A stretch of 5,051 bases of DNA from IMG/VR virus record IMGVR_UViG_2563366929_000004; one strand, given 5' to 3'. The translations under genes were made by a program, and so were the position numbers. Source of the stretch: a virus (Duplodnaviria; Heunggongvirae; Uroviricota; Caudoviricetes). Positions 1-5,051 of this stretch are shown in pieces; positions within the stretch are counted from its first letter, which is position 1; each line of letters begins with the position of its first letter. The notes beneath the pieces were generated by a model. The model did no database searches, had not been told where the DNA came from, and saw only the letters and a list, made by a program, of their open reading frames with translations.

Positions 1-36
1 AGATAAAACACTCTCCAGGAAACCCGGGGCGGTTCA
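1..36 (+). mobile_element. Right terminal inverted repeat of an IS3-family insertion sequence (IS629-like); the element body lies left of the window
   Basis: The reverse complement of 12..36 (TGAACCGCCCCGGGTTTCCTGGAGA) matches 23 of 25 positions of 4846..4870 (TGAACCGCCCCGGGAATCCTGGAGA), which sits just upstream of an IS3-family orfA. Assignment to IS629 rests on recalled termini, not a search. Confidence 0.7.
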
Positions 37-803
37 ATACGGGAGAACTCATAACCGCAGTCATGACATCTGCCGGAATAGTTCGATTGAATTTGTTTTA
101 GCGCCGGATACAGTTCGCGGAATAATGCCTGTGAGCGGTTGGCATAATCCCATAGCCATACAAGGCTGTTTGCTTCTTTTGCAGAAAGCTCGTTGGTTTT
201 CTTCTCTTGTTTGCCGATGAACTCACCTTCAAGCACTACCCTGTGGATGTACTCTACTGCTTGTGGTATCTGAGATGCATCAAGCTCTTCAATACTTTCC
301 ACATTGAAACGCTGATGAATCATTGCATAAGCTTCTGGGTACATTAGATGCTTTTTGCTGACTAGCATATTTACAGCATCACGAAGCGGAGTCCTGTCAT
401 CAACAGATGTTTTCTTCCGTGCATTTGCTGCCTCTCCCTTTGTCCAGTAGTCATGCAGCACAGTAAAGCATTCTTCCTGGTACTGAATCAGTTTATCGCG
501 GATGTCAGCACGAACTTTCTCAGGGTTGATGCTGAACAGCCATCCATTTAACTTCTTCAAAGGAAGGCAGAGTAGCTTACGAAGCTTACCATCAGCGGCA
601 ACCATGTTCATATGAACACAGTTGAATTTGCTAATCTGCTTCATGAGTTTTGTTTGCTGCGTTGACCAGCTCATTCCGAGGTTTTCAACGATTGGCTTCA
701 TCGCAACATATGCAACTCCGGCAGCCATGGCGGTGATAATTTGCTGACCGTTGAATGGCACGTAAGAGGTGTTCACTGCTTCTAAAATTGCTATACTATT
801 CAT
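37..803 (-). CDS. ant: Phage antirepressor, P22 Ant-like; 3' end interrupted by the IS at 36/37, and the frame reads on into the IS
   Basis: ATG at 803..801 with GGAG about 9 nt upstream. The open frame runs to the window edge (translation starts [46 protein letters not shown]). It is not in the ORF track because no stop lies in the window. N-terminus recalled as Ant-like; position downstream of arc and divergent from mnt supports this. Confidence 0.75.
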
Positions 804-884
804 GTTGGTTTTTCTCCACGGATTTACCGACAACCGAAGCCCTGACTGTTCCAGCAGTTGGGGCTTCACTGTTTTGATTTCTTT
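804..884 (+). ncRNA. Candidate sar-like antisense RNA covering the ant ribosome-binding site and start codon
   Basis: Extended -10 (TGcTATACT, 789..797) on the + strand just inside the ant 5' end. An imperfect hairpin (836..867, GAAGCCC/GGGCTTC core plus wobble-extended stem) followed by the T-rich ACTGTTTTGATTTCTTT lies about 30-80 nt downstream. P22 makes an antisense sar RNA at the equivalent position. The 804..1035 arc-ant spacer has no ORF longer than about 10 codons on the minus strand. Confidence 0.35.
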
Positions 885-1035
885 GCCGCATCAAGCATCA
901 CTTCTGAAAACGTGCGCTTGCCACTGAATACTCTTTCTCTTCTCAATTTTTCGTTCGTGCCAAATGATTCGCCATGAACAAAATTTGGTCTTAAAATGGT
1001 AATCGCAATCTCTTTGACTACTGCATCCAAGCGAA

Positions 1036-1188
1036 TCACACCGTTACCCCCTCTCTCTTCAGGCTGTCTATCAGGCGCTTGATAACCTCTGAGTTAAACG
1101 ACCTGCACTCTTCCTTTGCCCTGCTACCGATAGCATCCTTTAACGACTGCGGCATCCTTACCAAAATCTTACTTATTTCTTTCTCCAT
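1036..1188 (-). CDS. arc: Arc-like ribbon-helix-helix transcriptional repressor (50 aa)
   Basis: ATG at 1188 is preceded by GGAGGG 5 nt upstream. The translation MEKEISKILVRMPQSLKDAIGSRAKEECRSFNSEVIKRLIDSLKREGVTV resembles P22 Arc (the RSxNSE motif and KxEG C-terminus). The ORF-track start at 1224 is a TTG extension with no RBS. Confidence 0.8.
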   Translation of the reverse strand: MEKEISKILVRMPQSLKDAIGSRAKEECRSFNSEVIKRLIDSLKREGVTV

Positions 1189-1224
1189 GTTACCCTCCAC
1201 GCAAACAACTCTTTTCGAATACAA

Positions 1225-1290
1225 AAGATAGCAAAGTGAGTATATCTAGTCAAAATTTTTTTGCATACACTTTGCTATCAAATTGAATAC
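1225..1290. promoter_or_regulatory. Divergent arc/ant and mnt promoter-operator region with a perfect 12-bp inverted repeat
   Basis: GATAGCAAAGTG (1227..1238) and its exact reverse complement CACTTTGCTATC (1268..1279) are separated by 29 bp. On the minus strand, -35 TTGACT (1253..1248), a 17-bp spacer and -10 TATCTT (1230..1225) overlap one arm. On the + strand, TTGCAT (1261..1266) and TATCAA (1276..1281) are weaker candidates around the other arm. Confidence 0.5.
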
Positions 1291-1302
1291 CAAAGGTGTT
1301 AT

Positions 1303-1551
1303 ATGGCAAAGGGTGTGTCAATTTCTCCAACTACGGTAAGAATCCCTGAATCTTTACGCGAGGCTCTTGCTGTCAGAGCATCAAAAAATGGTCGCTCTGT
1401 TAACTCCGAGATCGTCATGATTTTGCAAGCCGCGATTGATGAAGATAGGTCGCCAAAGTCAGTTGAGTCATTTGCTCAGCAAGAAGCTGATAAATTCAAA
1501 GAGGCGCTACTTGAGACGCTAAAGACCATGTATGCTAAGGATGAAAAATAA
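1303..1551 (+). CDS. mnt: Mnt-like ribbon-helix-helix repressor (82 aa)
   Basis: ATG at 1303 with AAGGTG 5 nt upstream. MAKGVSISPTTVRIPESLREALAVRASKNGRSVNSEIVMILQAAI... aligns by eye with P22 Mnt, including a similar C-terminal helix (...LLETLKTMYAK). It is divergent from arc. The ORF-track start at 1261 is a TTG extension. Confidence 0.8.
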   Translation: MAKGVSISPTTVRIPESLREALAVRASKNGRSVNSEIVMILQAAIDEDRSPKSVESFAQQEADKFKEALLETLKTMYAKDEK

Positions 1552-2087
1552 TGCTGCACACAATTCATTTCTTATGCCCTGTTAACACTGCCACTGTTGG
1601 GCAACTTCAGAACCACTGTCTCACCGCATTATCTCAAGGCGCAACTGAATTAAATATCCATATATCAAGTCAGGGAGGGGAAACTGCTGCTGGCTTTACT
1701 GCGTATAACTTTCTTAAGTCACTCCCTGTTACCGTTAGAACTCACAACATAAGCAATGTTGAATCCATAGCTAATATCGTTTTCCTGGCTGGCTCAGAAC
1801 GTTTCGCAAACCCATTATCAAGATTCCTGTTACATCCTCTATTATGGTGCTTTGCCTCCCCAGCCGCCGACCATGCCAGATTGAGAGAGTACGGGAAATG
1901 CCTCGATAACGATCTTGATCGCTTCGTTGAGACGTTCAATATCGACATCGGAACCCATATTAGGTGGGCATCCCTGATAGCAGACTCGACCATTTTGGAT
2001 GCTAACAAGGCTCTTGAGCATGGCATAATTAATTCCATAAAAACTGCAAGGCTGGCATCCAATCAGGCAAACTGGTGGGTTGTTTGA
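1551..2087 (+). CDS. ClpP-fold (S14-like) serine peptidase homologue, 178 aa
   Basis: The ATG overlaps the mnt stop (TAATG), with AAGGA about 9 nt upstream. By eye, ...LNIHISSQGGETAAGFTAYNFLKSLPVTVRTHNISNVESIANIVFLAGSERFANPLSRFLLHP... aligns with the E. coli ClpP core (YINSPGG...GQAASMGAFLLTAG...RVMIHQP). The candidate catalytic Ser (ESIAN) and His (LLHP) are conserved; an Asp lies near the expected position. Confidence 0.7.
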   Translation: MLHTIHFLCPVNTATVGQLQNHCLTALSQGATELNIHISSQGGETAAGFTAYNFLKSLPVTVRTHNISNVESIANIVFLAGSERFANPLSRFLLHPLLWCFASPAADHARLREYGKCLDNDLDRFVETFNIDIGTHIRWASLIADSTILDANKALEHGIINSIKTARLASNQANWWVV

Positions 2088-2110
2088 TGGGTAAATCATG
2101 ATTACTCCTT

Positions 2111-2138
2111 ATAAAAAACCCACCTGACGGTGGGTTTA
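2111..2138. terminator. Bidirectional Rho-independent terminator between convergent genes
   Basis: The stem AACCCACC (2117..2124) / GGTGGGTT (2129..2136) with loop TGAC is flanked by an A-tract (2111..2118) on one side and a short T run on the other. It sits between the ClpP-like stop (2087) and the YafO-like stop (2136). Confidence 0.6.
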
Positions 2139-2585
2139 GTCAAACATAGTGTTTCTAAAGTCTCTCGCATACCCTGCTAACACTCTCATTCTATTATGAT
2201 TGTTAGCAGACATGTGAGCTACAGGATGAAAAAGAGCAATCAATGAATACCTGTTCTCATCAAAAAGATTTTGTGCATAAACGAGAGCGGTATTGGATGT
2301 TTTATGCCACTGCAACTTTTGCGGTGTGCTGATATCTGTGCCATTTTTTATTGGCTCAAATTTATTTTCACCAATTGCTAAATGAAGGTGCATAAGGCCT
2401 GCATCTTCAATATCAGGAGGTCGATGATAAGAGGTGTCTCTGCCAAAATAGCTGGGCAACGTTCCCGTAGACTTGTAGATGATAAAATCATCTACAAGTG
2501 TTTGTTTTAAATCAGGAAACTCAACAAAAACCGGGGAGAAAAAATAGTCAAAACTATCCTGATTATATTCCACGGTTACTTGCAT
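2136..2585 (-). CDS. YafO-family toxin homologue (ribosome-dependent mRNA interferase family), 149 aa
   Basis: ATG at 2585 with GAGGT 6 nt upstream. Blocks ...DDFIIYKSTGTLPSYFGRD..., ...LMHLHLAIGENKFEP... and ...ALVYAQNLFDENRYSLIALFHPVAHMSANNHNRM... match recalled E. coli YafO segments (FISYKRDGVLPDIFGRD, HIHLANENNPFPP, LVYCQGAFDEQAWLLIAILKPEPHKLARDNNQM). Not verified by search. Confidence 0.7.
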   Translation of the reverse strand: MQVTVEYNQDSFDYFFSPVFVEFPDLKQTLVDDFIIYKSTGTLPSYFGRDTSYHRPPDIEDAGLMHLHLAIGENKFEPIKNGTDISTPQKLQWHKTSNTALVYAQNLFDENRYSLIALFHPVAHMSANNHNRMRVLAGYARDFRNTMFD

Positions 2586-2593
2586 GTTTTACC

Positions 2594-3160
2594 TCAGTGG
2601 AAGTTACCAGAGTGAAACACACGAGTCCCGTGCTCAGCAAGCGCACGCAAACCAGCCATATCTACGGAACTATCAAAAACAACCGGAACACATGAGCGTT
2701 GTTTAATAAGACTATTCAGGTTGGTTACGGCAGATCTGGCATCAGCAACAACGATATAGATATCTCTTGCGATCTCTTTAAAATCAGCAGAAGCTTCTTT
2801 GAATACCGATTTCATTGCCCCTTCAAGTCCTCTCAATTGATGCTCTATCAATCGAGACTTTTCTGGTTCAATGATAGACAACACATTGTCTACATTCTCA
2901 TCGGTAGCGTTTGCAAGAACACGATAAGCGTATTTCAGCATTCGAGACAATTCTTTAATCGAAGACACCGCCTCATGAAGCTCATCATTAGCCCGTTCAC
3001 TGCTGAATGAGGATTGATGGTAAGCGTGCTGAACGTTATCAGTAACAACCACCTCACAACTGAACGCAGAAGCTTGCTGTAATAGCAAACCTATTGCGAC
3101 TCCAGCTTTGGCAGCGTTCAAGCTAAACATTTCATCAATCCCATTAGTCTCATTGCTCAT
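2594..3160 (-). CDS. Hypothetical acidic 188-aa protein, upstream partner of the YafO-like toxin; family unknown
   Basis: ATG at 3160 with AAGGAGG 5 nt upstream. The ORF-track start at 3190 is a TTG extension. Its TGA stop (2596..2594) lies inside the toxin RBS (TGAGGT), leaving an 8-nt gap. No YefM/Phd, RHH or HTH signature is recognisable by eye. Confidence 0.65.
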   Translation of the reverse strand: MSNETNGIDEMFSLNAAKAGVAIGLLLQQASAFSCEVVVTDNVQHAYHQSSFSSERANDELHEAVSSIKELSRMLKYAYRVLANATDENVDNVLSIIEPEKSRLIEHQLRGLEGAMKSVFKEASADFKEIARDIYIVVADARSAVTNLNSLIKQRSCVPVVFDSSVDMAGLRALAEHGTRVFHSGNFH

Positions 3161-3227
3161 ACAAACCTCCTTCTTATCGGAGATTATCAATAGCTATGCA
3201 TCCATTGAATACACGCTATGCGCAATA

Positions 3228-3256
3228 AGTTTACGTCACGTGATATCATTATGCAA
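3228..3256 (-). promoter_or_regulatory. Putative promoter of the 188-aa/YafO-like operon with palindromes in the spacer
   Basis: On the minus strand, -35 TTGCAT (3256..3251), a 17-bp spacer and -10 TAAACT (3233..3228). The spacer holds overlapping palindromes TCACGTGA (3236..3243) and TGATATCA (3241..3248). A direct repeat GCTATGC (3193..3199 and 3215..3221) lies downstream. Confidence 0.4.
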
Positions 3257-3335
3257 CCACCGTTCTATCACCGACTAACTTTACTCCCACTCCTATACAT
3301 CATCTGGTATCCTGCGCAAAACTAAGGAGGTTGGT

Positions 3336-3686
3336 GTGAATGCTCAGTCTGTCATCATGGTTTTCCTTGGGCTGATTGTCGCAAAACTATATCCAGACTG
3401 GTGGAAAGGGGCATTAGCTACTGTCGCCATCTATTTGCTTTTATCCATCGTTAAGCGATCACTCGCTGAGACCGTAAATCAAGCAAAACGTTTCTCATTT
3501 AAGAGTTTAATAAACTATGTTACTGGGCTTATTTTTTGCCTTTCAATTCTGATCGCTTCGGCTTTTTTGCCCGTATCAATAGCTAATTTTTTTGGCGCAC
3601 CATATGAGGTAGGTTATCTATTCTCTGTTTCCTGTCTTGCCATTGCTCTTCTTTACCTGTGGACGAGATCAAAGAATAAAAATTAG
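3336..3686 (+). CDS. Small integral membrane protein (116 aa, about 4 predicted TM helices), function unknown
   Basis: GTG start at 3336 with AAGGAGG (3324..3330) 5 nt upstream. Four hydrophobic stretches (SVIMVFLGLIVAKL, ALATVAIYLLLSIV, LINYVTGLIFCLSILIASAFL, VGYLFSVSCLAIALLYLW) and a basic C-terminus (RSKNKN). Divergent from the toxin operon. Confidence 0.65.
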   Translation: MNAQSVIMVFLGLIVAKLYPDWWKGALATVAIYLLLSIVKRSLAETVNQAKRFSFKSLINYVTGLIFCLSILIASAFLPVSIANFFGAPYEVGYLFSVSCLAIALLYLWTRSKNKN

Positions 3687-3703
3687 CCATCCGTGGCTGC
3701 CAG

Positions 3704-4845
3704 TTATTGAGCTTCTTTTTGTGATGCCTGTGCGACTCTGGTGAGCGATTGTGTGACCGTACTGATCGCTCTGTCATATGCTGTGCTACCTTTTGGCGTA
3801 TTTGCCAGACGTAACAAGGCATTTCGTATAACAGGGCTTTCGTATGCCTTCGCAGCTCCTCCTACGACACCAGCAGCAGGAACAACAAACGCAGCCGTTT
3901 TTAGCATCCCCGCTAATACTGCTGCGTTTATGATGCCACCACCAACTAACAATCCATAAAGCTGCTGACCATTTAAGTTTTGAACGTTCGCTTTTGCCGC
4001 GTGTCTTGTATCGTTGAGGTATTTAATAACGCCGTCCAGTTCCTTTCCATGTACGCCTTTAAAGAAAGTTGCTGATTGCTTCCTGTTCCGGTGTAACGCA
4101 TTAATAAACTTTTCAACACTAATATTTCCAGACGGATCAGTCGCCTTATCTACAGCATTCTGAACTATGGCTGCTCGTGCGTTTTGCCTACCATTGTCAT
4201 CCAGAAGCCTGTAAAGCTGAGAACGTTCTGATGGGTTTTGGCTAAAAACGAGTTTTGTTACATCCTCAGGTGTAGCCTTGCCGCTGGCTATTGCCTTTTG
4301 AACGCGCGTTCTTCCCATCATGTCATTGAATCTAGCCCATGAGCGATCAACCCTAGACATATTGGCAGCTTCTTCTGAGCCTAGTTTTTGGGATACTGCT
4401 TTTTTCATATCCGCTGTATATGCCTTGTAGACAATATCGCTGGCTTTCTGGAGCGTGTCTTTATCAACAGTCTCGTTTGAATTCATGAACCGCTTTCGAA
4501 GGTCAGTTCTGTTTTCTCTCGCCAGACGCAGGTCATTGGGTCCGCTGGTGATATCGTCTTTAAATTGCTGCAAGACTTTTACCGCGGCTCTATCCTGAGA
4601 TTTGCCCGGGCGGCTTAACACGGCAATCTGATTGTCGATAGCTTTTACCGTGTTTGAGAGATCGACAGGGGTATCCCCCATAGCGTCAATTATGCGGTTA
4701 TATCGCTTTCCTGCTGCCTCAATGAATTTTTGTTGCCCTTTAGTCGCAGATTCATAAAGCTGTTTATCAGAAATGCCACCCAGACCATCGCTAAATGTTC
4801 TGACTAAATTTTCTCGTGCTTGTTGTTGATTCAGCCGATTCTTAC
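3704..4845 (-). pseudogene. 5'-truncated gene for a large phage protein (possibly a gp16-like DNA-ejection protein), interrupted by the IS at 4845/4846
   Basis: The frame stays open from 3704 up through 4845 and into the IS inverted repeat; the first in-frame stop upstream (4871..4873) lies inside the IS. The first in-frame ATG is at 4681, the 325-aa ORF in the track. The C-terminal part has a Gly/Ala-rich hydrophobic stretch (LYGLLVGGGIINAAVLAGMLKTAAFVVPAAGVVGGAAKAY). The product call rests only on position relative to the immI genes. Confidence 0.5.
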
Positions 4846-5051
4846 TGAACCGCCCCGGGAATCCTGGAGACTAAACTTCCTGAGAAAGAGGTAAACAGGA
4901 TGACTAAAAATACTCGTTTTTCCCCCGAAGTCCGTCAACGGGCAGTCCGTATGGTTCTGGAAAGTCAGAGCGAATATGACTCACAATGGGCGACAATTTG
5001 TTCCATTGCTCCAAAGATTGGCTGTACGCCGGAGACTCTGCGTGTCTGGGT
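4846..5051 (+). mobile_element. Left end of an IS3-family insertion sequence (IS629-like), running off the window
   Basis: Terminal repeat TGAACCGCCCCGGGAATCCTGGAGA at 4846..4870, followed 29 bp later by the orfA start. It is the inverted counterpart of 12..36. Confidence 0.8.
4900..5051 (+). CDS. IS3-family transposase OrfA (IS629-like), N-terminal part; partial
   Basis: ATG at 4900 with AGAGG about 10 nt upstream. Translation [50 protein letters not shown] matches the recalled IS629/IS1203-type OrfA N-terminus with its helix-turn-helix region. Confidence 0.85.

Follow-up and report, generated by a model that had tools for sequence, protein, structure and literature searches.

A probable sar antisense RNA gene and a likely small arc-coupled gene in the immI region of a P22-like Escherichia coli prophage

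Does the DNA directly upstream of ant in this stretch encode an antisense RNA of the sar type, and what occupies the long interval that separates ant from arc? The window, by which we mean the whole 5,051-nucleotide stretch that was analyzed, covers the immI region, with mnt, arc and ant, of an E. coli prophage of the P22-like (Lederbergvirus) kind. Prophages of E. coli S88, APEC O1 and many other ExPEC strains match it at 100% identity over positions 36-4845, and the Lederbergvirus phage phiv205-1 does so at 99.7% over positions 700-1320. The gene order mnt / arc / (orf57) / ant is backed by Pfam, PHROGs and RefSeq annotation, and the genes concerned are the following.

37..803, minus strand: ant antirepressor gene, cut short (Pfam P22_AR_N, 3e-45; ATG at 803-801).
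866..1039, minus strand: orf57, 57 codons (from the ORF list; phrog_17642; annotated in S88 and phiv205-1).
1036..1188, minus strand: arc, for an Arc-family ribbon-helix-helix repressor, first in the Pant operon (Pfam PF03869, 5e-12; RefSeq).
1303..1551, plus strand: mnt-like Arc-family repressor gene, divergent from arc (Pfam Arc, 9.5e-11; phrog_2685, 1e-31).

The sar RNA has been known since 1987 and was among the first antisense regulators ever described. In P22 it is 68-69 nt long, and its promoter, Psar, is activated by transcription from Pant. Liao et al. 1987, Wu et al. 1987 and Schaefer & McClure 1997 reportedly established that sar made from Psar pairs with ant mRNA. The passages on sar in PMC13397905, PMC2629481 and PMC12111858 describe it as antisense to ant and as preventing ant translation, and the passage in PMC13397905 adds that small-RNA sequencing has picked up the P22 RNA.

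When the whole window was compared with Rfam, sar (RF00262) was the sole match above threshold, at 804-870 on the plus strand, with a score of 83.9 bits that is nearly twice the gathering score of 43 (E 3e-17). The match spans the full model, positions 1-68 of 68. Over window positions 700-868, identity is 98.2% with Salmonella phage epsilon34 and 88.2% with P22. The homologous stretch of epsilon34 (NC_011976, epsilon34_gp72) is annotated as ‘sar, small antisense regulatory RNA’ and differs from ours at two positions within the RNA; the promoter annotated before it was located by similarity with P22 Psar. The Rfam match and the alignment to epsilon34 and P22 therefore suggest that the candidate is sar itself, an orthologue and not just an analogue of P22 sar. 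On sequence grounds, we put at about 0.93 the probability that the segment from 804 to about 872 on the plus strand encodes sar, the cis-antisense RNA of the P22-like immI region. The first-pass annotation had proposed a sar-type antisense RNA directed against the ant ribosome-binding site, and the Rfam score, the 98% identity to epsilon34 and the immI context all bear this out. The parts of the locus on which this reading draws are listed here.

804..872, plus strand: sar antisense RNA (Rfam match 804-870; 3’ end placed within the U run 871-876).
789..797, plus strand: Psar extended -10 TGCTATACT (TGcTATACT; hexamer TATACT at 792-797), within ant codons 3-5.
804..831, plus strand: stem-loop I, with a 6-bp outer stem 804-809/826-831 (MFE fold).
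836..867, plus strand: stem-loop II, the intrinsic terminator hairpin, with 14 bp and the 4-nt loop UCCA (terminator scan and folding).
868..884, plus strand: T-rich terminator tail ACTGTTTTGATTTCTTT, whose minus-strand bases encode the last codons of orf57, KKSKQ and the stop.
812..818, minus strand: ant Shine-Dalgarno region (GGAGAAA, 10 nt before the ATG), fully within sar.

Sar at this locus is already known biology, and the correction concerns annotation: sar is present but unannotated in the S88/APEC O1-type prophage and in phage phiv205-1. Among 5426 complete E. coli genomes, 340 match the segment 780-1060 over its sar part or more, and 93 carry at least 80% of the sar-plus-orf57 segment.

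We analyzed the putative promoter in the 5’ end of ant. An extended -10, TGcTATACT, had been pointed out on the plus strand just inside ant, and it is present at 789-797, in ant codons 3-5. The pattern TGNTATAMT has this single match in the window, with 0.30 matches expected by chance. The hexamer lies at the usual 7-nt distance from a start at G804, and the 44 nt upstream of that position (760-803) are identical to epsilon34 and one base off P22 in a three-way alignment. The -35 region is poor (GTGTTC, 2/6 matches), so the strength of the promoter would rest on the extended -10. Among the matches listed, TGnTAnnnT is kept in nearly all divergent ant alleles, with few outliers, such as those at the loci L067 and L085.

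Homology to P22 and to the Rfam model places the likely start of the RNA at G804 and its probable 3’ end at about 870-876, for an expected length of about 67-73 nt. The first-pass annotation had given the transcript as about 804..884; the start fits, and the implied 81 nt exceeds the expected length. The same annotation had described a terminator-like hairpin with a T-rich tail, and this structure was recovered at 836-867 with a tail reaching to about 884. Our scan found it to be the single terminator-like site in 600-1400, with the T tail on the plus strand only. The hairpin is predicted to be stable, folding by itself at -22.0 kcal/mol (z -5.2), and the RNA 804-884 folds at -32.4 kcal/mol (z -5.8), a value that none of 200 shuffled sequences reached. 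On the minus strand the hairpin folds at -16 kcal/mol with no T run behind it and therefore should halt plus-strand transcription only; the Pant and late transcripts, accordingly, should read through into ant. In stem-loop I the anti-Shine-Dalgarno CUCC (814-817) spans an inner 3-bp stem (813-815/820-822) and the apical loop (816-819).

We scanned IMG/VR with the sar hairpin and retrieved at least 120 loci, 113 of them usable. All 32 distinct sar 5’ halves from related loci, among the matches listed, form a stem that begins at nt +1. They do so with 13 different arm pairs, such as GUUGGU/ACCGAC, GUCAAUA/UGUUGAU, GUCGU/ACGAU and GCUAG/CUGGC; in the shuffle control, 9% of sequences reach four consecutive pairs from nt +1. 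The distinct 5’ halves go with different ant alleles. RNAalifold, applied to a MAFFT alignment of 17 divergent sar alleles, returned the invariant terminator stem only and no covariation; we used per-sequence folds with the shuffle control because MAFFT cannot cope with the divergence and the many indels of the 5’ halves. Stem II was tested in a second scan by a promoter/ant-start motif that is blind to the hairpin, which was needed because the first set of loci had been retrieved through the hairpin itself. The canonical hairpin occurred in 95 of the 128 matches to this motif, and most of the others had altered hairpins in which a change in one arm is compensated in the other (for example GAGGCC...GGCCUC), in every case with a T-rich tail behind them. 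About 10 chance matches in unrelated phages were left out.

The predicted RNA is antisense to the leader and ribosome-binding site of ant within an mnt-arc-ant immI region, its putative promoter lies within the ant 5’ end and is homologous by sequence to P22 Psar, and of its two stem-loops the 3’ one is a Rho-independent terminator on the sar strand. P22 sar has the same antisense position directly upstream of the ant start in immI, the same extended -10 within ant, and the same two-stem-loop shape with the anti-Shine-Dalgarno in stem-loop I and the terminator as stem-loop II. From +1 to the end of the hairpin, 60 of 64 nt are identical between the two RNAs. The substitutions in the window are C for A at 819, C for T at 828, which turns a G-U pair of P22 into a G-C pair, and two changes in loop II at 851 and 853. 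The 3’ tail is unlike that of P22 (ACUGUUUU... versus AACUUUACG) and richer in U (ACUGUUUUGAUUUCUUU versus AACUUUACGCG). The two loci differ further in the gene that ends at the terminator, which is orf57 in the window and arc in P22, and in ant, which is cut short in the window genome, unlike in P22.

The ant Shine-Dalgarno GGAG (817-814) is the complement of the sar CUCC. With a start at G804, the RNA would thus extend over the ant Shine-Dalgarno and begin right beside the start codon, without covering it. The first-pass annotation had the RNA lying over both the ribosome-binding site and the start codon of ant, of which the first part stands and the second does not. We propose that RNA polymerase would start at the extended -10 of Psar (789-797), within the first codons of ant, and that transcription would initiate at G804, directly beside the ant start codon, and end at the intrinsic terminator formed by the 836-867 hairpin and the U run. 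The product would be a two-stem-loop RNA of about 70 nt, perfectly complementary to the ant mRNA leader, Shine-Dalgarno included. Pairing of sar with ant mRNA made from Pant or from the late promoter would block ribosome binding, and the block of ant translation would leave less antirepressor able to inactivate the prophage repressor. The transcript, its exact ends and repression at this locus are inferred from the work on P22.

The proposed mechanism has to be weighed against the state of the target gene. The ends of an IS3-family element, whose terminal sequences at the window ends we take to resemble those of IS629, lie at both margins of the window:

1-36: right end of the IS3-family element.
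4846-5051: left end of the IS3-family element and start of its orfA.

The element cuts ant at about codon 256 of 300, so that the last 45 codons (135 nt) are gone and the match to P22_AR_C is confined to profile positions 1-56 of 73. It also cuts a gene of the P22 gp16 ejection protein family, of which the N-terminal part is gone. The ant gene of S88 is intact (903 nt), and homology to S88 begins at window position 36. The two E. coli genomes that match best, FY26 and FDAARGOS_1301, lack the exact IS arrangement of the window. Since ant is cut by the IS, sar may be a leftover without purpose in the host genome, that is, sar by descent and a functionless relic in a segment bracketed by IS3-family elements. 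The two IS ends, the loss from ant and the interrupted gp16 homologue speak for this account, as does the same truncated ant in FDAARGOS_1301, which RefSeq marks as a pseudogene. However, sar, its promoter and its terminator are intact and identical to those of the intact prophages S88 and APEC O1 and of the viable phage phiv205-1, and if a relative with the same ant leader superinfects, its ant mRNA could still be a target for sar in trans. We regard loss of function in this host as a serious possibility, though the less probable outcome; it concerns this host only and leaves the identity of the element as sar untouched.

We also analyzed the DNA between arc and sar. The first-pass annotation described an arc-ant interval of about 230 bp with no ORF longer than about 10 codons, and this did not hold, as the 57-codon orf57 lies there at 866-1039 on the minus strand. 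The orf57 frame begins with a GTG that shares bases with the arc stop codon (GTGA) and stops at a TGA within the base of the sar hairpin. The phrog_17642 profile matches orf57 over its full length (positions 2-57 of 57, 147.8 bits, E 1.3e-43), and the gene is annotated as WP_000620145.1 in E. coli S88 (PGAP) and as QGF19908.1 in phage phiv205-1. The noncoding gap between orf57 and ant is 62 nt; in P22 and epsilon34, arc and ant are 68 nt apart. What had appeared to be an unusually long arc-ant spacer is a gap of roughly P22 length plus a small gene that makes up the extra 170 bp. The gene next to sar on the upstream side is not arc but a 57-codon gene that is probably coupled to it in translation; in epsilon34, arc itself adjoins the terminator and the end of the arc CDS is the end of sar. 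Homology to P22 and epsilon34 ends at 868/869, right after the hairpin, and thus the extra DNA is a mosaic insertion, with arc on one side and the sar terminator on the other.

The same interval was compared across the 113 usable loci, and the counts that follow hold among the matches listed. In 59 of the 113 loci an Arc-family gene ends 0-33 nt from the hairpin, which is the P22 arrangement, and about 49 have a small non-Arc ORF beside the hairpin. The Arc gene lies just upstream in about 45 of these roughly 49 small-ORF loci, nearly always overlapping the ORF by 4 nt. The interval ORFs are 40-89 codons long, have their TGA stop in the hairpin base, and fall into eight clusters without detectable mutual similarity that represent at least seven unrelated families (examples are at L005, L006, L014, L017, L049, L051 and L060). 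One singleton is probably itself a ribbon-helix-helix protein. The 60-aa ORF of L060 passes the Pfam zf-C4_ClpX threshold (43 bits against 27), and related alleles, of the L014/L017 family, match zf-C4_ClpX weakly. A link of these ClpX-like mini-proteins to ClpXP proteolysis is conceivable, and a ClpP-like gene follows mnt in the phage type of the window. The Arc proteins encoded upstream of the interval ORFs always end in ...SLKREG(I/V)x(V/I) and are of three DNA-binding types.

The Rfam sar model scores above threshold beside the 73-aa and 89-aa interval ORFs and beside the K. aerogenes and metagenomic copies of orf57. At the K. aerogenes locus (L128, GCA_014901995.1), an orf57 homologue with 86% identity lies between arc and a sar homologue (Rfam, 62.6 bits), and the antirepressor encoded downstream has a KilA-N N-terminal domain in place of P22_AR_N. 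Different types of antirepressor are therefore found in company with sar and its terminator. We observed separately that at one locus (L033) the Arc gene ends 33 nt from the hairpin and the gap holds 25 nt of the orf57 3’ end (ACTGTTTTGATTTCTTTGCCGCATC), which looks like a deletion derivative that lost orf57.

A second alternative is that the window has a new sar-like RNA at the end of a long noncoding arc-ant leader, so that the 57-codon ORF would be no gene and the extra 170 nt would be regulatory RNA. The comparison of orf57 with the K. aerogenes copy gives this idea some footing, as 3 synonymous and 8 non-synonymous codon changes, among 11 substitutions only, show no sign of purifying selection. 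Variants of orf57 with frameshifts and with a 15-aa duplication exist, AlphaFold2 gave a low-confidence model from a 6-sequence alignment (pLDDT 54, pTM 0.26), and orf57 has no Pfam match. The relatives of orf57, from E. coli and Klebsiella aerogenes, fall into 10 clusters with identities of 78% or more. On the other hand, orf57 stays open over the 11 substitutions, the two remaining frames of its strand are interrupted by stops, and the full-length phrog_17642 match and the PGAP annotation agree with a gene. Seven further ORF families, unrelated to it, have the same junctions, and among them is a clear zinc-finger protein of the ClpX type. We consider the noncoding-leader explanation improbable.

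The idea that the hairpin mainly serves the minus strand, in processing or stability of Pant or late mRNA, or is a recombination linker with plus-strand transcription incidental, is very improbable: the hairpin does occur with many different flanking sequences among the matches listed and does also fold on the minus strand, but G-U pairs make it much stabler on the plus strand (-22 versus -16 kcal/mol), the T-rich tail is on the plus strand only, the extended -10 is found at a fixed upstream distance in nearly all ant alleles among the matches listed, and P22 sar is an experimentally characterized transcript according to the literature cited in the sar passages of PMC2629481.

The conservation of both borders of the interval is the pattern expected from exchange via linker sequences. 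We tentatively propose, at a little under even odds, that the DNA from the arc stop to the sar terminator is a dedicated cassette site in the Pant operon of P22-like phages, apparently undescribed before, of which the 57-codon gene is one cargo. If so, recombination would use the arc 3’ tail and the sar terminator as linkers, and the cargo would be expressed together with Arc and Ant right after infection and could provide accessory functions such as exclusion or counter-defence. The arc-sar interval would also be a convenient place to search for small phage accessory proteins that are expressed at infection. The ‘ant moron’ of Villafane et al. 2008 (PMC2629481), as its account of the moron has it, includes the prophages of APEC O1 and UTI89, and the window is this same region in the APEC O1-type prophage. 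The moron is described there as being in rapid genetic flux, which anticipates the cassette idea; the passages on the ant moron describe no gene between arc and ant and no cassette-like exchange between arc and sar.

Upstream of arc, the intergenic region shared with the mnt-like gene contains the following elements.

1225..1253, minus strand: candidate Pant promoter (TTGACT, 17 nt, TATCTT with TG; promoter scan).
1227-1238 and 1268-1279, no strand assigned: perfect 12-nt inverted repeat GATAGCAAAGTG / CACTTTGCTATC, arms 29 nt apart.

The place of the candidate Pant matches that of Pant/Pmnt in epsilon34. The inverted repeat falls in the space that separates arc from the divergent mnt-like gene, where it overlaps the predicted Pant. 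By its position, the 1227..1279 repeat probably provides candidate operator sites for an Arc/Mnt specificity type unlike that of P22.

Beyond the mnt-like gene lies one further gene on the same strand.

1551-2087, plus strand: gene for a ClpP-family protease homologue (Pfam CLP_protease, 2e-11).

Its ATG overlaps the stop codon of the mnt-like gene (TAATG), so the prophage probably expresses it together with the maintenance repressor. A bidirectional terminator at 2115-2144 (AAACCCACC...GGTGGGTTT) separates this ClpP-like gene from a convergent toxin gene. Weak Rfam matches to sroH, GABA3 and HCV, all below threshold, were rejected as candidates, and those to sroH are merely this terminator. 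The toxin gene, of the YafO type II family, lies at 2136-2585 on the minus strand, and 8 nt upstream of it is a 188-aa gene at 2594-3160, also on the minus strand. The 188-aa gene has no Pfam match and possibly encodes a non-canonical antitoxin or partner of the YafO-family toxin.
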